Assembly (NCBI GenBank): GCA_007132635.1
Contig: SLOG01000019.1
Location: 1 to 34,919, forward strand
DNA length: 34,919 nt
Direction: 5' to 3'
From: Limnochordia bacterium
Lineage (GTDB): Bacteria; Bacillota; Limnochordia; Darwinibacteriales; SLO01
The position numbers were made by a program, and so were the translations under genes. Under the pieces are notes generated by a model. It had not been told where the DNA came from, did no database searches, and worked only from the letters and a program-made list of their open reading frames with translations. Shown one piece after another: positions 1 through 21,814 of the stretch (position 1 is the first letter of the stretch; every line of letters begins with the position of its first letter).

Positions 1-207
1 GGCCCCTTCCTTTAGATATGAGGATATAACCTCCACTCAGCAAAGGGAGCGCTCTATACGCTGAGCTCATTGGACGCTTGTTAGACTGCTCCCTCGTCAA
101 TGGGGGGCTGGTCTTGTTGGCAAGCATAGATCCGACTGTACGATTTTAGCCTAATGTATTCTGGTCACAGGGACATCGCTCCGATGTCACACAAGATACA
201 TTTCGCG

Positions 208-6321: not shown

Positions 6322-6528
6322 TTAGGGCTTGTCTTCAGGCGGTTGAGTCTTAGGCTTCTCGTCCAATGCATCGTCCATCGTATCCTGCATTTCCTTCATC
6401 GACTTCTTGAACTCCCGCAAACCTTGCCCAAGAGAGCGCCCCAGCTCGGGCAGCTTAGCAGGGCCAAACACGATCAACGCAACACCAAGGATCAGAATCA
6501 GCTCCGCAGGGCCAATACGTCCGAACAT
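6322..6528 (-). CDS. tatA: Twin-arginine translocase subunit TatA/E (paralog 3)
   Basis: '[42 protein letters not shown]' is the canonical TatA TM segment plus amphipathic helix. AGGAGGAG lies upstream. A GTG at 6531 is an alternative start. Confidence 0.85.
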
Positions 6529-6603
6529 CACCTGTCATCTCCTCCTAATAGCTGTGATCGCATTCCATACAGCCAGTTCTACAGCAAAGCAATAAGCTTA
6601 CTC

Positions 6604-6723
6604 GAAGGCATTTGATTTTCTCGATTTTGACGAAAGCCAGTTTACGCCATTTACCTAAAATGCTAGGTCAACGGCGTGGCGCGATGCCCTCGTCCGTAGA
6701 AAACGGAGAAAATCAACGCCTTC
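6604..6723. repeat. Copy 1 of a ~120-nt imperfect-palindromic intergenic element, between tatC and tatA3
   Basis: Outer arms GAAGGCaTTTGATTTTCTC / GAGAAAATCAAcGCCTTC, inner GACGA / TCGTC, and a central hairpin ACGCCATTTACC-loop-GGTCAACGGCGT. By hand count, 72 of 89 ungapped positions match copy 3. Confidence 0.85.
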
Positions 6724-6768
6724 CTAGCCAAGAGAATCCATCTGGGTGCGCTGTCTCGGAGTCAACTG

Positions 6769-7494
6769 CTATTCTTTTTTGGCTTTGCGCCGTCCGATGA
6801 CAATCGCCACGAGCACACTCAACTCAAAGAGAAGAACCATGGGTCCAGCAAGCAGAACCTGGGAGATCAAATCCGGCGGTGACAATACGGCTGCCACGAC
6901 TATGATGGCCAGGTAGATATATTTGCGGTTTCGCTTTAGTCCAGCTGCTGTCAGCAGATTTAGCTGTGTAAGCAGGACCACCACAATAGGCATCTCGAAG
7001 ACAATACCAAAAGACAGTAAAATGGATGTGATGAAACCTACATAACTCGCCACAGAGAACATTGGTTCGACACCAGAGAACGCAATACCGGTAAAAAACT
7101 CAATCGTCAAGGGTAGGATAACAGCATAGGCAAAGACCACGCCGACAGCAAAGAAAAAGACCCCTGCAACCAACGAGATGCCCATGTATAACTTCTCGCG
7201 CCGATGAAGCCCCGGCTTCAGAAACAGCCAGACCTGACCAAGAGTGATGGGAAGCGTAAGCATGATACCGGCTATGATTGATAGTTTGACATACACAAGA
7301 AAGAGTTCTGGCGGAGACAGATAGACAAACCGGAGCCCCTCAGCCGGGCGCATGACGAGCTCCGTAATCTGGCTCACAAATTGATAGCTGAGGATCGTCC
7401 CCGCAAGGATGCTGGCCACCAAGATGATGAGCCGTCGCCGCAGCTCCGCCAGGTGTTCAATGAAGGTGAGCGGCTGCTCCTCACTTTCCCTCAC
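6769..7494 (-). CDS. tatC: Twin-arginine translocase subunit TatC
   Basis: 241 aa with a GTG start. 'LTFIEHLAELRRRLI' is the canonical TatC N-terminus, followed by six hydrophobic segments. Confidence 0.9.
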   Translation of the reverse strand: MRESEEQPLTFIEHLAELRRRLIILVASILAGTILSYQFVSQITELVMRPAEGLRFVYLSPPELFLVYVKLSIIAGIMLTLPITLGQVWLFLKPGLHRREKLYMGISLVAGVFFFAVGVVFAYAVILPLTIEFFTGIAFSGVEPMFSVASYVGFITSILLSFGIVFEMPIVVVLLTQLNLLTAAGLKRNRKYIYLAIIVVAAVLSPPDLISQVLLAGPMVLLFELSVLVAIVIGRRKAKKE

Positions 7495-7507
7495 AAATCA
7501 CCAACCC

Positions 7508-7687
7508 CTATTCCGACTTCTGCTCTGTTTCGCTCTCATCTTCCGGTGCGCCAGATGAGTGCTCGCGGAACTCGCGGATTGCCTTCCCTAAAGACTGACC
7601 GATAGCCGGCACTTTTGATGGGCCAAAGATTACCAGCACAATGATGAGAATAAGGATTAACTCCATGGGACCGAGTCGTCCAAACAT
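7508..7687 (-). CDS. tatA: Twin-arginine translocase subunit TatA/E (paralog 2); 59 aa, below the ORF-track cutoff
   Basis: Hand translation of the minus strand from the ATG at 7687 gives MFGRLGPMELILILIIVLVIFGPSKVPAIGQSLGKAIREFREHSSGAPEDESETEQKSE, ending at the stop (TAG on the minus strand) at 7508-7510. GGGAGG lies upstream. The stop is 13 nt before the tatC start. Confidence 0.8.
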   Translation of the reverse strand: MFGRLGPMELILILIIVLVIFGPSKVPAIGQSLGKAIREFREHSSGAPEDESETEQKSE

Positions 7688-7739
7688 AAGTCTGCCTCCC
7701 TCAAGGTCATTCTGACAAAACCACCGCGGACAGGCGACC

Positions 7740-7925
7740 TCATTTTTTGCTGCGGAAAACGTTTGTGATATCCAGCGACTCTTTCAGTTCGTTGGTGGTC
7801 TTCCGGTACTCCGTGATTCCGCGGCCCAACGTCTTCGCCGCCTGGGGAAGATTCTTAGGGCCGATGATGACAACCAGCACCACCGCGATCAAAAGCATCT
7901 CCAAAAGCCCAATTCTTCCAAACAT
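7740..7925 (-). CDS. tatA: Twin-arginine translocase subunit TatA/E (paralog 1)
   Basis: 'MFGRIGLLEMLLIAVVLVVIIGPKNLPQAAKTLGRGITEYRK' has TatA architecture. Confidence 0.85.
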   Translation of the reverse strand: MFGRIGLLEMLLIAVVLVVIIGPKNLPQAAKTLGRGITEYRKTTNELKESLDITNVFRSKK

Positions 7926-8074
7926 ACGTCACCATCCTCAGAGTCAAGCTCCACCGGACCGGAATAATCTCGTAGGCCAACTGCACGAACACTCTATCCA
8001 GATCGCCAAAAGCCTTATGACTGTTCACTTCGTCAAGTGTTTCAAAGATCCTTCTTGACCTCAAGTTACCTCTG

Positions 8075-8195
8075 GAAGGCTTTTGATCTTGCCGATTTTG
8101 CCGAGTGCCGGTTCAGCTCGTTGACCTTAAATGCCACGTAAACGAGGTGCTGTGATGCCCTCGTCGGTGGAAAAACGGAGAGAATCAACGTCTTC
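8075..8195. repeat. Copy 2 of the ~120-nt imperfect-palindromic element, in the divergent region upstream of tatA1
   Basis: By hand count, 79 of 89 ungapped positions match copy 3. The right arm 'TCGGTGGAAAAACGGAGAGAATCAACGTCTTC' parallels copy 1. The stems carry more mismatches than in copies 1 and 3. Confidence 0.85.
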
Positions 8196-8244
8196 CTTGA
8201 TAAGTGAGCGAAACAAAAAAGCCGTACTCATTGCCGGCATTTTT

Positions 8245-8253
8245 TGGTAGAAT
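8245..8253 (+). promoter_or_regulatory. Candidate extended -10 promoter (TGgTAGAAT) for the membrane-protein gene
   Basis: TGgTAGAAT lies about 40 nt upstream of the ATG at 8292, with no clear -35. The same 'TTTGGTAGAAT' string occurs upstream of hup. Confidence 0.4.
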
Positions 8254-8291
8254 GGTGATAGGAATTCAATTTTGAGAGGAGCGGTACCAAA

Positions 8292-8789
8292 ATGTTTGAT
8301 TCTAATGCTAGTATGATCATGCTGTTCGTTACGATTATCATCGTCGTGCTGACAACAGCTGTCTTGGTACTTCGCTGGTTTATCCACCAAGAACGCATGG
8401 CGCTCATCAAGCATGGGCATGGGCGGCGACTCGAACCCGACGGCGCGGGTTCTTCTGCTTCGAAGACAACACTGGCATGGGGCGTAGGAATTGTTCTCCT
8501 TGGGCTTGCCTTGGTACTGGGTCTGATAACCATAGGCATTGGTCCTTGGCTGTTGTTTGGGCTGATTCCACTCGGTGCTGGGATTGCTCTGATCGCAGCT
8601 CACATGATAACGTCTGGCACTAAGCGACAGGAGGCGGAACCAGCTGCGGAAGACACAGGAGCCTTCGACTCGAAGGTCTCACCCGCCAAGTCTACTCCCG
8701 AAGAGGTCGAGGACAGCATTCCTCCAACAGAAAGTGAGGATATTGAACAGGACGAGTCGAAAAAAGACGAACCGTTTGGGAGATCTTGA
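8292..8789 (+). CDS. Small integral membrane protein with an acidic C-terminal tail (possibly DUF6249-like)
   Basis: GAGAGGAG SD upstream. N-terminal TM segment followed by 'HQERMALIKHG', then two more hydrophobic segments and an E/D-rich tail. The family assignment is from memory only. Confidence 0.55.
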   Translation: MFDSNASMIMLFVTIIIVVLTTAVLVLRWFIHQERMALIKHGHGRRLEPDGAGSSASKTTLAWGVGIVLLGLALVLGLITIGIGPWLLFGLIPLGAGIALIAAHMITSGTKRQEAEPAAEDTGAFDSKVSPAKSTPEEVEDSIPPTESEDIEQDESKKDEPFGRS

Positions 8790-8810
8790 GCTGCCCTGTC
8801 TCTTCGCATG

Positions 8811-9968
8811 TCATCTTTTGATGGCTTCATAGATCCTCTGTACTGCGCTGCGAAAGACTGAAGAGCGTAACTCGACAGCATCATGGGGGCAGAGTTCATG
8901 GCAGCAGTAGCACTGCACACAGCTGCTCGCATCCACCACATGCTGGCCGTCAATGAAACGAATCGCCTCTACGGGGCAGGCGCGGCGACAGATGCCGCAG
9001 TTGATGCAGCTCGCGGAGTCAATTTTGGGGTAGGCACTGAGCAGCGAGATTCCGGTCTTAGCAGCAAAACCCGGCAGCGGCAGGCCTCTTCTGCGGAAGC
9101 GGAAGTCACTGACAGTCAAGGCTGCTGCCGGTCCTTCTACCTCAAGGGCACTTTCGTCAGACTCGCCCAAGCCTCGCGCTTTGGCCTTAACGAACACCGC
9201 CAAATCACCGGTTGGTATGCCTACTAACCGACACGCTGCGGCATCGACAGCCACTCCGTCGCTTCCAGCAATTAAAGCACCCACATGGCGCGGCGTGCCG
9301 GCGGCCGGGCCATCACCTTCCATGGCAGTAATCCCGTCCATTATGCTCAACCCCGGCGCGGCTAAGGAAAAGATGTCCAAAATATAGTCGCTAAACTGCT
9401 CGAGCCCCGGCGCCTCTTTGTGGTACCACATTTTCCGATTGCCCGGCACACAGCCATACATATTCTTGACGGCCCCCGTGAACACCGTTAGCGAGTGTGT
9501 TTTTAGCTTCGGCATATTTATTACGAGATCTGCCTCGAGCACGGGCTTGGCCAGAACAATAGCACCAAAGGAGTCTCCCCTCGGATTGGGCAGCGACACC
9601 ACTTCCGAACGGTCAAAATTAATGACTTCCACACCCAACTCTTGAGCGACATCAGCGATGCCGCTCACAGCAAATGACTCTGCGGTACGCTCACCGCCAG
9701 GGAATACCCCGCCGGAACTGTCGCCAACCTGAACCCGCGCTCCTACCTCCATTAAGCATTTTGCTACAGCCCAAACCACCACAGGGTGTGTCGTCACCGC
9801 TCTGTTCGGCTCTTTGGGCCCGAGCAGGTTCACTTTTATGAGGACTGTGGAATTGGAGTTAGCCCATGAGGTTATGCCGCCCAACCGTTCAAACAGATGT
9901 CTCACGCGCGCCTCTACTACCTCCCGCCGATAGTCGGGACAGTGTTCCACAACAACGCGGCTAGACAT
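8811..9968 (-). CDS. DUF362 domain protein fused to a C-terminal 2x[4Fe-4S] ferredoxin domain
   Basis: Start trimmed to the ATG at 9968 (GAGGAGG 6 nt upstream), which overlaps the stop of the upstream gene by 8 nt. The DUF362-like core includes 'VLIKVNLL' and 'MPKLKTHSLT'. The C-terminus carries 'CINCGICRRACP' and 'CVQCYCCHELCP'. Confidence 0.8.
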   Translation of the reverse strand: MSSRVVVEHCPDYRREVVEARVRHLFERLGGITSWANSNSTVLIKVNLLGPKEPNRAVTTHPVVVWAVAKCLMEVGARVQVGDSSGGVFPGGERTAESFAVSGIADVAQELGVEVINFDRSEVVSLPNPRGDSFGAIVLAKPVLEADLVINMPKLKTHSLTVFTGAVKNMYGCVPGNRKMWYHKEAPGLEQFSDYILDIFSLAAPGLSIMDGITAMEGDGPAAGTPRHVGALIAGSDGVAVDAAACRLVGIPTGDLAVFVKAKARGLGESDESALEVEGPAAALTVSDFRFRRRGLPLPGFAAKTGISLLSAYPKIDSASCINCGICRRACPVEAIRFIDGQHVVDASSCVQCYCCHELCPHDAVELRSSVFRSAVQRIYEAIKR

Positions 9969-10350
9969 CGTTGGCCTCCTCTGCCAGAACCTTCGCGACA
10001 TCGATGGCCTCAGCAGCCACAACGACGGCTGCGGTACCCCCGTGGAAATTGGGGTTACTCGTCAGTGTAAAATCTAGGCCTTTTTGCTGCGCTTGTTTGA
10101 TAAACGGCATCGTCTGCGAGGACGCCTTGCTGTGAATCACCAGCTCATCAGCCCTATCATCACGGATGGCCTCCTCCATAGCGTTTTTTCCGACCGAACT
10201 GCGAAGCTGCTCAAACGTCACCGCCTGCAATACTCTCTCTCGGAAAAAGCCCAAAAACCTGCGCTTCTCCTCGCGGCGCAGCTGCGGGCTGCCCTGCATG
10301 CCGGCCGAAACTGTTCGCTCAAGCTCAGCCTTCTTTTGGTTGTTTGCCAA
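9961..10350 (-). CDS. YueI/DUF1694 family protein
   Basis: 'EEKRRFLGFFRERVLQAVTFEQL' and the C-terminal 'DFTLTSNPNFHGGTAAVVVAAEAID' resemble my memory of B. subtilis YueI. The TTG at 10350 is the first possible start after an in-frame TGA. Confidence 0.65.
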   Translation of the reverse strand: MANNQKKAELERTVSAGMQGSPQLRREEKRRFLGFFRERVLQAVTFEQLRSSVGKNAMEEAIRDDRADELVIHSKASSQTMPFIKQAQQKGLDFTLTSNPNFHGGTAAVVVAAEAIDVAKVLAEEANDV

Positions 10351-10356
10351 TACGAC

Positions 10357-10390
10357 TCACTGCTGCAAGAACAGCAGTGATCACCTCCTT
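10357..10390 (-). promoter_or_regulatory. Strong SD (AAGGAGGTGA) separated from the yueI-like TTG start by a perfect 9-bp hairpin
   Basis: The minus strand reads AAGGAGGTGA-TCACTGCTG-ttcttg-CAGCAGTGA-gtcgta-TTG. The linear SD-to-start distance is 30 nt, but only about 6 nt if the hairpin forms. Confidence 0.4.
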
Positions 10391-10433
10391 AGCTTTGAAA
10401 CCAATTTTCCGGAAAGTTCCGGAGGGCTATTGG

Positions 10434-10826
10434 TTATTGAGGAATCTCTATCTCGCCCTGCCAGCCAAGCATGCCATCAACTAGATTATCCACGCGTGTG
10501 AATCCCATCTCCTGCAGAATGCCCTGCGCCACCCGACTCCGGTTTCCGCTGCGGCACACAGTCACAATCCAGGTATCCCGATCCAACTCGGCGATCATCG
10601 GATCATCGGCAAGCTGACCTCCCGGGATTGGGTGAGCATTAGGAATGATCCCGAGCGCATGCTCATGCGGCTCCCGGACATCAATGACAACCACAGCTTC
10701 ACCGTATTCCAAAAGTTCTTGGAGTTCCTCTGCAGACATGTCGCCAGCCTCAGAAAACGGAAACGGAAGAAACAGACTCCCTGCCAATAGAGTAACCATC
10801 GCAGCAAAAATGACCTTTATCTTCAT
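10434..10826 (-). CDS. Exported single-domain rhodanese (sulfurtransferase)
   Basis: Start at the ATG at 10826 (AAGGGAGG 7 nt upstream). Signal-peptide-like 'MKIKVIFAAMVTLLAGSLFLPFPFSEA'. Rhodanese active-site loop 'CRSGNRS'. Confidence 0.85.
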   Translation of the reverse strand: MKIKVIFAAMVTLLAGSLFLPFPFSEAGDMSAEELQELLEYGEAVVVIDVREPHEHALGIIPNAHPIPGGQLADDPMIAELDRDTWIVTVCRSGNRSRVAQGILQEMGFTRVDNLVDGMLGWQGEIEIPQ

Positions 10827-10890
10827 CGCGTCTACCTCCCTTATTGTTCTTGCTCCTAAAGGAAATCCACAATTTCCCTCTCGTCTGATC

Positions 10891-10957
10891 AAAAAAAGGC
10901 CTATCCGGGAGCGCGTGTTTCACAAACATTGCGGACACTCACCCATCGTTAGGCCTA
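10891..10957 (-). terminator. Possible long-hairpin intrinsic terminator downstream of tRNA-Leu and repeat copy 3
   Basis: On the minus strand, AGGCCTA ... TAGGCCT (7 bp) closes an imperfect long stem (GGGTGAGTGT / ACACGCGCTCCC). A T7 run follows directly (plus-strand A7 at 10891-10897). Confidence 0.4.
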
Positions 10958-11046
10958 GAAGGCAGTTGATTTTCTCGGTTTTGACGAGTGCCGGTTCACC
11001 TCGTTTACCTTAAATGCCAGGTAAACGAGGTGCTGTGATGCCCTCG
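10958..11046. repeat. Copy 3 (right arm missing) of the imperfect-palindromic element, 19 nt from the 3' end of tRNA-Leu
   Basis: The left arm and the central hairpin CACCTCGTTTACC-TTAAATGCCA-GGTAAACGAGGTG (13 bp, perfect) are intact. Similarity to copies 1 and 2 stops after 'GATGCCCTCG'. Confidence 0.85.
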
Positions 11047-11065
11047 GGAGACTGCCAATTTCCAT

Positions 11066-11153
11066 TGGTGCCGGGAGCGGGACTTGAACCCGCACGAGCG
11101 AAGTGCCCAACGGATTTTAAGTCCGCAGCGTCTGCCGATTCCGCCACCCCGGC
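11066..11153 (-). tRNA. tRNA-Leu (anticodon UAA), type II with a long variable arm and encoded CCA
   Basis: The reverse complement reads GCCGGGGTGGCGGAATCGGCAGACGCTGCGGACTTAAAATCCGTTGGGCACTTCGCTCGTGCGGGTTCAAGTCCCGCTCCCGGCACCA. It has a 7-bp acceptor stem, anticodon loop CUUAAAA and T-arm GCGGG-TTCAAGT-CCCGC. Confidence 0.9.
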
Positions 11154-21204: not shown

Positions 21205-21756
21205 TCAGCGTCGACCTTTATCTGAAGGGAATTCTCTATTCAGCCACTGCTCGAAAAGCTCGTGCTCAGCATCCGCCTCTGATTGAGCTTCTTTGCGGTT
21301 CTTTTTCCGCTCTTGCTCCAGGCGCGCTTTTTCCTTCTCCGTCTCTTCGCGTTGCACAACTCTCTGGCGAATGCGCTGCATTTCATCCTCGTCGAGAGTC
21401 TGGGTCAGTGCCGTCGTCTGCACAGGTTGATTCAGCGTCTGCTCGCGTCTCCAAAGGGCCTGTACTTTCCGTCCGAAATCCCGCAGTATGCCGCGGTTTT
21501 TTACTTCGCTTCCAGTAATGCGCAGAACCGTGAAGCCTTGCGTTCGCAGATATGCATCTTTGCGTCGGTCTCGGGAAACACTGTCTCGCGTGAGATGCAC
21601 ATAGCCATCGACTTCGATGACAATGTGCCTTCCGACCAAAACATCAATTTCGTAGCGATCAATTCTGGCGCGGTGCCTGAAAGGAACTCCGCGGCGCTTG
21701 AGTTCTGCTATCACCTTTCTTTCGCTGCTCAGGCCGTTGTCGTGTTCTCGCTCCAT
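21205..21756 (-). CDS. DUF559 / Vsr-like (PD-(D/E)xK fold) endonuclease-domain protein with a charged coiled-coil tail
   Basis: 'RRGVPFRHRARIDRYEIDVLVGRHIVIEVDGYVHL...DRRKDAYLRTQGFTVLRI' has the DUF559 pattern. The C-terminal ~80 aa are E/K/R/Q-rich. Start at the ATG at 21756 (GAGGTG upstream). The ORF is open to 21792, which would overlap the upstream terminator's U-tract. Confidence 0.7.
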   Translation of the reverse strand: MEREHDNGLSSERKVIAELKRRGVPFRHRARIDRYEIDVLVGRHIVIEVDGYVHLTRDSVSRDRRKDAYLRTQGFTVLRITGSEVKNRGILRDFGRKVQALWRREQTLNQPVQTTALTQTLDEDEMQRIRQRVVQREETEKEKARLEQERKKNRKEAQSEADAEHELFEQWLNREFPSDKGRR

Positions 21757-21790
21757 GAGGCACCTCATTTGCGGCAGCGGCAGTTTCCAC

Positions 21791-21814
21791 AAAAAAACTC
21801 GTCACAGGGACGAG
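21791..21814 (-). terminator. Intrinsic terminator (CTCGTC-cctgt-GACGAG + T7) immediately upstream of the DUF559 gene
   Basis: The minus strand has a 6-bp stem followed by TTTTTTT. It lies about 90 nt after the stop of the NTP-transferase gene and about 35 nt before the DUF559 start. Confidence 0.5.

Follow-up and report, generated by a model that had tools for sequence, protein, structure and literature searches.

A probable lineage-restricted palindromic repeat of the MITE/REPIN/ERIC-like class around the tat genes of a Limnochordia bacterium

The repeat considered in this study is best set beside four kinds of described bacterial sequence. MITEs are exemplified by Correia/NEMIS (Neisseria), RUP (S. 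pneumoniae), bcr1 (Bacillus cereus group) and MITEAba12. REPINs are REP doublets that form hairpins and are mobilised by RAYT/TnpA-REP; they are known chiefly from Proteobacteria and a few cyanobacteria, and are not known from Clostridia-like Firmicutes. ERIC/IRU sequences (~127 bp in the case of ERIC) are intergenic imperfect palindromes, often within transcribed regions, whose copy number varies between species. Finally, PATEs and the IS200-IS605-derived miniatures make no target-site duplication, take one orientation relative to replication, and carry a separate subterminal hairpin at each end. The copy number of a bacterial MITE can be as low as 1–22 (PMC10969869). In REPINs, compensatory changes are common and clusters arise by insertion beside existing copies, with no target-site duplication expected (PMC3116915).

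The sequence examined, contig SLOG01000019.1 of the Limnochordia bacterium assembly GCA_007132635.1, is 34,919 nt long, and I will refer to the whole of it as the window. The features that matter here are as follows.

6322..7925, minus strand: tat cluster (Pfam PF02416, PF00902), with copy 1 of the repeat between tatC and tatA3
6322-6531, minus strand: tatA3
6604..6723: copy 1, full length, 120 nt, between tatC and tatA3
6769-7494, minus strand: tatC
7508-7687, minus strand: tatA2
7740-7925, minus strand: tatA1
8075..8195: copy 2, full length (121 nt), between the divergently oriented tatA1 and DUF6249 genes
10434..10826, minus strand: rhodanese-domain gene (PF00581), with a hydrophobic N-terminus
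10891..10956, minus strand: intrinsic terminator-like site (long hairpin and T-run), directly downstream of copy 3
10958..11046: copy 3, truncated in the window, 89 nt, with a perfect central hairpin
11066..11153, minus strand: tRNA-Leu(UAA), past whose 3' end copy 3 starts at 19 nt
11197-11169: promoter-like site of the tRNA-Leu context

A preliminary description of this DNA, made by eye, had reported the three copies, and repeat search, alignment and nhmmer all place them where it did, with nhmmer E-values of 1e-27 to 1e-39. A 26-nt pattern at the left end occurs three times, as against 0.02 occurrences expected by chance. All three copies lie on the same strand, in direct orientation (by repeat search and alignment), an agreement that has a chance of 1 in 4. 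They are intergenic, each lying, on the minus strand, 5' of tatA1, tatA3 or the rhodanese gene, again as described. The description's hand counts of identity over the first 89 nt were exact on recount (79/89 for copies 2 and 3, 72/89 for copies 1 and 3); copies 1 and 2 agree at 66/89, and pairwise divergence over this length is 11–26%. The core of the repeat is ~120 bp, possibly with ~10 bp of weaker similarity on either side, and no open frame is conserved across the copies. A small-protein gene was considered and rejected, no frame being open in all copies.

A variant on contig L021, described below, brings the known sequences to at least four. These form two subtypes, copy 1 and the L021 variant having in common the central-hairpin subtype CGCC/GGCG, and all known copies, the L021 variant included, lie within ~4.5 kb. 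Scans with nhmmer and a covariance model (R1) covered 101 kb, comprising the window plus related loci, and found no further or degenerate copies in the remaining ~31 kb of the window or in its short extensions (L033/L034).

The element resembles bacterial MITEs in its size (in their ~100–150 bp class, and under the ~500 bp that bounds MITEs), in its lack of coding capacity, in the terminal inverted repeats that fold the whole unit into one long hairpin, in its intergenic placement, including inside operons, in its presence or absence between close relatives, and in the existence of decayed and truncated copies. Unlike MITEs, it has no demonstrable target-site duplication at its flanks, no cognate IS with matching ends in the window or extensions, no known copies outside one 4.5-kb region of the ~36 kb of genome covered, and no similar sequence in any of the collections searched. 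Copy 1 is flanked by CTC/CTA and copy 2 by CTG/CTT, neither pair a clean duplication; the comparison covered these two, copy 3 being truncated in the window and at the contig end in the related contig L003. No transposase, RAYT, Y1-transposase, tnpA/tnpB or integrase was found in the window, and no transposase, RAYT or integrase in the extensions.

With REPINs, whose unit is ~70–110 nt, the element shares a symmetric hairpin-forming unit, compensatory changes, clustering and the lack of a target-site duplication. REPINs, however, reach tens to hundreds of copies per genome, as against three copies here in ~36 kb of genome, and neither the short conserved inverted REP 16-mers with a variable spacer nor a nearby RAYT could be recognised. 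Conservation is spread along the arms of the element, and no discrete REP cores can be defined from four sequences. ERIC is likewise an imperfect palindrome and intergenic, but comes from a different phylum; the element does not evidently resemble its core consensus, and ERIC copies are dispersed, many at orthologous sites across species. The likeness to PATEs and IS200-IS605 miniatures lies in the absence of target-site duplications, in the single orientation relative to replication (the plus-strand GC skew of -0.10 makes the minus strand the leading strand), and in a TTAC or TTAG found a few bases to the left of every copy. In contrast to those miniatures, the element is one end-to-end palindrome, its TTAC-like motif stands at no fixed distance, and tnpA/tnpB are lacking in the window.

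The collections searched ranged from RNA families to proteins. Rfam 15 gave no family over the copies at gathering thresholds or even at E<=10, only tRNA-Leu passing in the window. The left-end pattern GAAGGCNNTTGATNTTNNCGNTTTTG had no match in IMG/VR and two in 185,579 GTDB species representatives; these are chance matches, with similarity confined to the pattern. A pattern of both ends matched 17 JGI metagenome contigs, all by chance and confined to <=29 nt around the pattern, and neither it nor a central pattern matched IMG/VR. PLSDB plasmids and INPHARED phages gave no match (blastn, distant mode). A search of 5.8 billion predicted proteins with peptides of the element (six-frame, three copies concatenated) returned nothing at E<=10, which argues against a very high copy number in the sampled assemblies.

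The long imperfect palindrome that had been claimed is borne out by the folding of copies 1 and 3. Copy 1, the strongest folder of the window copies, reaches -46.5 kcal/mol on the plus strand and -54.3 kcal/mol on the minus strand (z = -5.2 and -8.2 against shuffles), and the truncated copy 3 gives z = -3.5 (plus) and -5.7 (minus). Copy 2 is structurally decayed: eight of its pairs are broken (neither Watson-Crick nor G-U), and with z = -1.6 on either strand its fold does no better than shuffled sequence. Strand preference is inconsistent, the minus strand folding better for copies 1 and 3 and the plus strand for copy 2, and the folding of the copies carries no strand-specific RNA signal. The folded element forms a hairpin of roughly 50 bp with terminal inverted arms of 17–19 bp (GAAGGCnnTTGATTTTCTC / GAGAAAATCAAnGCCTTC). 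Across the aligned copies the whole structure is 90.6% paired, and the outer helix, with 17 pairs and 94% of its cells paired, is the best-conserved paired part. Copy 3 does have a perfect central hairpin, which extends over 14 bp in the MFE structure.

The preliminary description also drew attention to a compensatory change in this hairpin. Two adjacent pairs are in fact swapped on both sides: in an alignment of four sequences (the three window copies and the L021 variant), columns 43/72 are split evenly between C-G and G-C, and columns 44/71 between U-A and C-G, with two sequences in each state. Since the alternative state is common to copy 1 and the L021 variant, however, this amounts to one event separating two subfamilies, and the count of covarying pairs (2/44) is not above that of shuffles, 384 of 500 of which equal it.

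The nearest relative available is a sister species represented by ~25 kb in Logan contigs L024/L025, with a TatC 90% identical. Its gene order is identical (rhodanese-DUF1694-DUF362-DUF6249-tatA-tatA-tatC-tatA-NAT), but none of the three orthologous sites has the element, as judged by spacer comparison and by nhmmer and the covariance model over the ~25 kb; empty orthologous sites are what one looks for in relatives of a genome with a MITE. The tatC-tatA3 spacer is 20 nt in the sister as against 237 nt in the window, the DUF6249-tatA1 spacer holds no element, and tRNA-Leu is immediately followed by the terminator and the rhodanese gene. The sister's copy 2 site (L024 2964-2983) bears a weak resemblance that is not significant (E = 9.7). 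Because the intergenic DNA has diverged, the empty sites are not base-precise; where copy 1 lies, the window has ~215 nt extra relative to the sister, of which only ~120–140 nt are repeat. In more distant relatives (L026-L030, 65% by TatC), where the spacer is 32 nt, neither nhmmer nor the covariance model found a copy. A cis-regulatory leader would be kept at orthologous positions with covariation, and neither the 90% nor the 65% relatives display this. The element thus arrived at no fewer than three intergenic sites in this lineage after its divergence from the closest relative sampled.

Copy 3 requires separate comment. Its order relative to the rhodanese gene is as had been claimed, but the hairpin and T-run of a terminator-like site (10891-10956) separate the two. 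A simple consensus terminator scan omits this site, its loop being too long; it was recognised by reading the sequence directly and from the MFE fold, and it is conserved in the sister species. Consensus scans gave no promoter- or terminator-like sites inside the repeat copies. Copy 3 thus lies within the trailer of tRNA-Leu, in its transcription unit, with the terminator-like site between it and the rhodanese gene, and being upstream of that terminator, it is not a rhodanese leader.

Copy 3 is also where strains differ. ENA contig L003, 99.83% identical to the window over 10.2 kb, bears it at full length (120 nt), the contig stopping one base before the outer end of the element; at its far end L003 runs into unrelated GC-rich sequence. 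Contig L021 comes from the same sample; its tRNA-Leu has the same 19-nt spacer and the same junction, but the element there is a different variant. With a full-length copy 3 in one contig and a different variant beside tRNA-Leu in the other, the structure of the locus varies at the repeat between near-identical strains. An independent contig agrees with the window at 100% identity over copies 1 and 2 and over the first 89 nt of copy 3. Protein look-ups of TatA2, DUF6249 and TatC returned contig L003 alone, and those of the window's rhodanese and DUF1694 returned no record.

I take the element to be a lineage-restricted, non-coding, imperfect-palindromic intergenic repeat of the MITE/REPIN/ERIC-like class, most likely mobile or selfish, with a probability of roughly 0.6. 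This was one branch of the preliminary description, and it fits the absence from the sister species, the at least four variants, the polymorphism between strains, the decayed and truncated copies and the lack of an Rfam family. Against it stand the confinement of the copies to ~4.5 kb, the want of a clean target-site duplication or a precise empty site, the lack of a transposase in the window or extensions, and the want of any copy in the nucleotide collections scanned; and the single orientation of the copies is also what a functional element would show. The other branch held that the element is a lineage-specific cis-acting structured RNA (leader, processing or stability element) or, one might add, a palindromic operator, co-regulating Tat and rhodanese envelope genes. 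The copies do gather round one functional gene neighbourhood, oriented as the flanking minus-strand genes and 5' of tatA1, tatA3 and rhodanese, copies 1 and 3 fold strongly, and two adjacent pairs are altered on both sides. Yet the sister species keeps the genes and their order without the element at any site, one of the three copies is truncated in a tRNA trailer with a terminator before the rhodanese gene, another is decayed, folding favours no consistent strand, the covariation is a single event of a sort reported to be common in mobile hairpin repeats (REPINs), and Rfam offers no match. A role tied to export genes therefore finds no support, and I regard it as distinctly unlikely.

The same clustering could come from local repeats that are not mobile, left over from a single larger insertion or rearrangement and copied among neighbouring intergenic sites by recombination, gene conversion or template switching without transposition machinery. 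Every known copy is within 4.5 kb and in direct orientation, target-site duplications are absent, and the copy 1 site contains ~95 nt of extra DNA that is not repeat. Moreover, copy 3 of the window is the product expected of a crossover, within the 11-nt TGATGCCCTCG, between the full copy (L003) and the tRNA-adjacent variant (L021), and the junction at 11041-11051 resembles sequence already present in the sister (CCCTCGGGAGA vs CCCTGAGGAGA). Recombination alone nonetheless explains poorly how a 120-nt unit came to three intergenic sites with no flanking gene sequence duplicated; the 11–26% divergence and two subtypes suggest different source copies, and it is the terminal inverted arms that are best conserved among the paired parts. 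This makes purely local repeats a rather unlikely account. That the repeats are attC- or dif-like recombination sites, delimiting the modules tatA1-tatA2-tatC and DUF6249-DUF362-DUF1694-rhodanese for site-specific rearrangement, is very improbable: three direct repeats do bracket two gene blocks, they are imperfect palindromes of typical attC size, and strain differences fall at a repeat boundary, but the sister species has the blocks in this order with no repeats, the ends (GAAGGC...GCCTTC, read directly) lack the attC motifs GTTRRRY and RYYYAAC, and no integrase or recombinase is found in the window or extensions. An integron attC site was rejected specifically, as the GTTAGGC beside copy 3 belongs to the terminator stem and is present in the element-free sister; a tRNA-derived att site was also considered and rejected. 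Mis-assembly of the metagenome, producing the repeats or at least the truncated copy 3, might be suspected from the difference there between the window and both ENA contigs of the near-identical strain, and from the unrelated GC-rich sequence at the other end of L003. It is hardly credible in view of the exact recurrence of copies 1, 2 and the first 89 nt of copy 3 in an independent contig, the syntenic placement of tRNA-Leu beside the rhodanese gene in the sister, and the mere 11 nt common to the variants at the junction, too short for a mis-join in a k=141 graph.

The lineage-restricted repeat, then, is an ordinary kind of bacterial repeat, of a family so far undescribed, which decays (copy 2), gets truncated (copy 3) and accompanies structural differences between near-identical strains. 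Its spread would have been by transposition, or by some related kind of insertion, with the machinery provided in trans; the substrate recognised may be the terminal inverted arms of 17–19 bp or else the entire hairpin in single-stranded form. Palindromic symmetry and the double compensatory change could reflect the needs of mobilisation, or template-switch repair within the palindrome, rather than selection on an RNA, and the tight cluster might arise from local reinsertion beside existing copies or from a hot spot at tRNA-Leu. By analogy with REP, ERIC and Correia, the RNA hairpin might have side effects on processing or stability wherever a copy is transcribed, as for copy 1 within the tat operon and copy 3 within the trailer of tRNA-Leu. 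For annotation, the element is not to be read as a riboswitch-like regulator of Tat export; it marks spots where assemblies of this uncultured lineage break or strains differ.

A more specific version, that the element is a REPIN-like hairpin mobilised as a single strand, hopping locally and strand-specifically near a tRNA gene in a Clostridia-like lineage, with at least copy 1 co-opted as an RNA hairpin to uncouple the expression of tatA3 from tatA1-tatA2-tatC, seems to me improbable. It draws on the single orientation relative to the direction of replication and on the lack of target-site duplications. The operon around copy 1 is tightly coupled in the sister species (the 20-nt spacer). If the full genome showed such a strand-specific, locally hopping hairpin repeat, REPIN-like biology would extend to a new phylum, and the operon with and without a ~50-bp hairpin insert would be a natural experiment on effects on expression. 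As a minor observation, a CTNG motif is common to the junctions of the element, which is suggestive at most.

A repeat search of the window returns one direct three-member family (6594-6692, 8065-8163 and 10948-11046). Alignment and an nhmmer profile (E = 1e-27 to 1e-39 across copies) place the three copies of the palindromic element exactly where the preliminary description had put them.

Copies of the element in the window, all on the same strand (alignment and nhmmer profile)
6604-6723, copy 1, between tatC and tatA3
8075-8195, copy 2, between the DUF6249 gene and tatA1
10958-11046, copy 3 (truncated), beside tRNA-Leu

The identities counted earlier by hand are also exact: 79/89 between copies 2 and 3, 72/89 between copies 1 and 3. 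The ends of the element read GAAGGCnnTTGATTTTCTC, and there are at least four sequence variants, counting those in contigs from related strains. Past these ends, copies 1 and 2 retain a weak similarity, for about 12 nt on the right (8/12) and about 10 nt on the left. The left extension of copy 3 is terminator sequence that is present also in a sister species and hence predates the element, so similarity in the flanks may come from a preference for certain targets and not belong to the element.

The element had earlier been matched to no riboswitch, sRNA or named repeat family. Rfam 15 at gathering thresholds finds only tRNA in the window, and at E<=10 it finds nothing on any copy. Comparison by blastn to plasmids and phages gave no match. 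Scans of GTDB species representatives, JGI metagenome contigs and IMG/VR with degenerate patterns gave chance matches only, none extending past the pattern, and no spurious ORFs derived from the element appeared among 5.8 billion proteins. The family is therefore undescribed in the resources searched, and appears to be restricted to the lineage of the window.

The window comes from an uncultured Clostridia-like Firmicute, of which GCA_003558925.1 is a conspecific MAG. Its TatC has a single 100% match, the record of the window's own 34,919-bp contig in NCBI and ENA, and the identical protein is encoded also by L003, an ENA contig from a near-identical strain; there follow one relative at 90% (Logan assemblies) and then none above 65%. 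The nearest named taxa, Anaerosolibacter, Alkaliphilus, Tissierella and Proteinivorax, stand at about 50-56% identity. Raw reads are those of ERZ27301262/ERZ27301263 and SRR7083929 and, for the sister species, SRR32456884/SRR32456895.

The sister species, which is the relative at 90% (contigs L024/L025), has a gene order identical to that of the window and no element. Between its tatC stop and tatA3 start there are 20 nt, where the window has 237 nt; its DUF6249-tatA1 spacer can be aligned on either side of copy 2 but does not contain it; and about 36 nt beyond its tRNA-Leu comes the same terminator hairpin, then the rhodanese gene. The relatives at 65% also have a short tatC-tatA3 spacer (32 nt), and nhmmer and a covariance model found no copy over the loci of either. 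The element was therefore gained in the lineage of the window, for sites 1 and 3 at the least. The suggestion of a regulatory element tied to the tat and rhodanese genes fares poorly here: elsewhere these genes function without it, and no other point weighs as heavily against a regulatory role that is conserved.

The surroundings of copy 3 bear on the same question:

Features around copy 3
11197-11169, minus strand, promoter-like site (11/12 matches, consensus scan)
11153-11066, minus strand, tRNA-Leu(UAA), upstream of copy 3 with a 19-nt spacer between
10956-10891, minus strand, long hairpin with T-run, directly downstream of copy 3

Read on the minus strand, these features and copy 3 are followed by the rhodanese gene, DUF1694, DUF362/4Fe-4S, DUF6249 (plus strand), copy 2, tatA1, tatA2, tatC, copy 1, tatA3 and an arylamine N-acetyltransferase-like gene (families by Pfam assignment). 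Copy 3 thus lies within the trailer of tRNA-Leu, upstream of that unit's terminator, and does not serve the rhodanese gene as a leader. Housekeeping genes form a block over the remainder of the window (mfd, pth, L25, glmU, ispE, veg, ksgA, dnaB, ddl, gal genes). Since GC skew on the plus strand is -0.10 and the majority of genes are on the minus strand, the latter is probably the leading strand; all copies have one orientation relative to replication.

Predicted folding of the copies
Copy 1: plus strand -46.5 kcal/mol, z = -5.2; minus strand -54.3 kcal/mol, z = -8.2
Copy 2: plus strand z = -1.6; minus strand z = -1.6
Copy 3 (truncated): plus strand z = -3.5; minus strand z = -5.7

The full-length copies had been described as long imperfect palindromes. 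Copy 1 does fold as one, but copy 2, with 8 pairs that are neither Watson-Crick nor G-U, folds no better than shuffles. The central hairpin of copy 3 is perfect, as claimed. No strand is consistently preferred among the copies, which fits a palindrome at the level of DNA. In an alignment of the three copies with the variant from L021, a second ENA contig from the sample of L003, 90.6% of cells are paired. The double compensatory change is present (columns 43/72 and 44/71), but just 2 of the 44 pairs change on both sides, and of 500 shuffles of these four sequences 384 do as well by that count and 31 by the covariation score. The alternative state of the two adjacent pairs is common to copy 1 and the L021 variant, so the double swap is one event, defining two subtypes. 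Compensatory changes across hairpins are common in REPIN-type mobile repeats (PMC3116915) and therefore not diagnostic of regulatory RNA.

Identity to the window exceeds 99.5% in both L003 and L021. L003 matches it exactly over copy 1, copy 2 and the initial 89 nt of copy 3, then adds the 31 nt by which copy 3 of the window falls short of full length, and stops one base before the element's outer end. L021 has tRNA-Leu with spacer (19 nt) and junction as in the window, and continues into another variant of the element; of the 17 mismatches to the window in this 3.6-kb contig, most lie within the final 59 nt. The tRNA-proximal site thus differs among near-identical strains. Either one strain carries in tandem a full copy and a variant that is truncated, and a crossover within the 11-nt TGATGCCCTCG that they share gave the hybrid seen in the window, or there are two coexisting alleles; L003 and L021 together suggest the tandem. 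Some REPIN clusters arise via insertion into or beside existing copies (PMC3116915). The truncation junction (11041-11051, CCCTCGGGAGA) resembles the element-free sister at the same place (L024 ~50-60, CCCTGAGGAGA), so copy 3 may have been truncated by microhomology of the element's internal CCCTCG with the flank.

Given element-free relatives and strain polymorphism, I favor (probability roughly 0.6) a palindromic repeat of the MITE/REPIN/ERIC type, non-coding and specific to the lineage, that has spread locally and would have RNA effects, if any, only incidentally. Several observations tell against a straightforward MITE. There is no visible target-site duplication (flanks CTC/CTA and CTG/CTT), and all junctions read CTNG; the empty sites of the sister are not base-precise, site 1 having about 215 nt extra, only 120-140 nt of it repeat; no partner IS was found, the window holding no transposase, integrase or Y1 transposase; and known copies are confined to 4.5 kb, about 15 other intergenic gaps of the window lacking the element.

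Local duplication or recombination without transposition is a less probable origin, though the foremost of the alternatives. A dedicated cis-regulatory element is more doubtful still, with the same genes in the sister free of it at every site. I consider it very improbable that the copies are recombination sites, and equally so that assembly artefact accounts for copy 3, and there only for its form: a rhodanese gene beside tRNA-Leu is the syntenic arrangement, so the window contains no gross mis-join at this point.

Elsewhere, contigs diverge from the window. The final 121 nt of L003 (10272-10392) are GC-rich and unrelated to it, the break falling at ~806 of the window, within the MFS transporter gene (313-1566); it probably marks either a chimeric end of the contig or a junction in that gene that is peculiar to the strain. 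L034 (GCA_003558925.1, PWOC01000482.1) aligns only from position 140, its first 551 nt being different, so the left end of the window (1-139) is a further point of strain or assembly divergence. At the right end (34919), ENA contig k141_2742865 stops at the very base where the window does, which suggests a shared assembly origin or graph branch; NCBI contig PWOC01000385.1 runs about 400 nt further (shikimate dehydrogenase gene).

Three tatA paralogues surround one tatC in both the window (6322-7925) and L024 (3027-4414), the second TatA having 59 aa in the window and 75 aa in the sister species. The cluster's neighbors include the arylamine N-acetyltransferase-like gene, a 299-aa protein without Pfam family, two URO-D-family paralogues, YdjC and the MFS transporter. 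A hairpin with an A-run on one side and a T-run on the other (8209-8252, AAAAAAGCCGTACTCATTGCCGGCATTTTTT) adjoins an extended -10-like TGGTAGAAT that lies 5' of the DUF6249 gene and, unlike neighboring copy 2, is conserved in the sister species. Amid the housekeeping block, beside glmU, lies a DUF559/REase_MTES_1575 gene (Vsr-like endonuclease fold; 21205-21792, minus strand).
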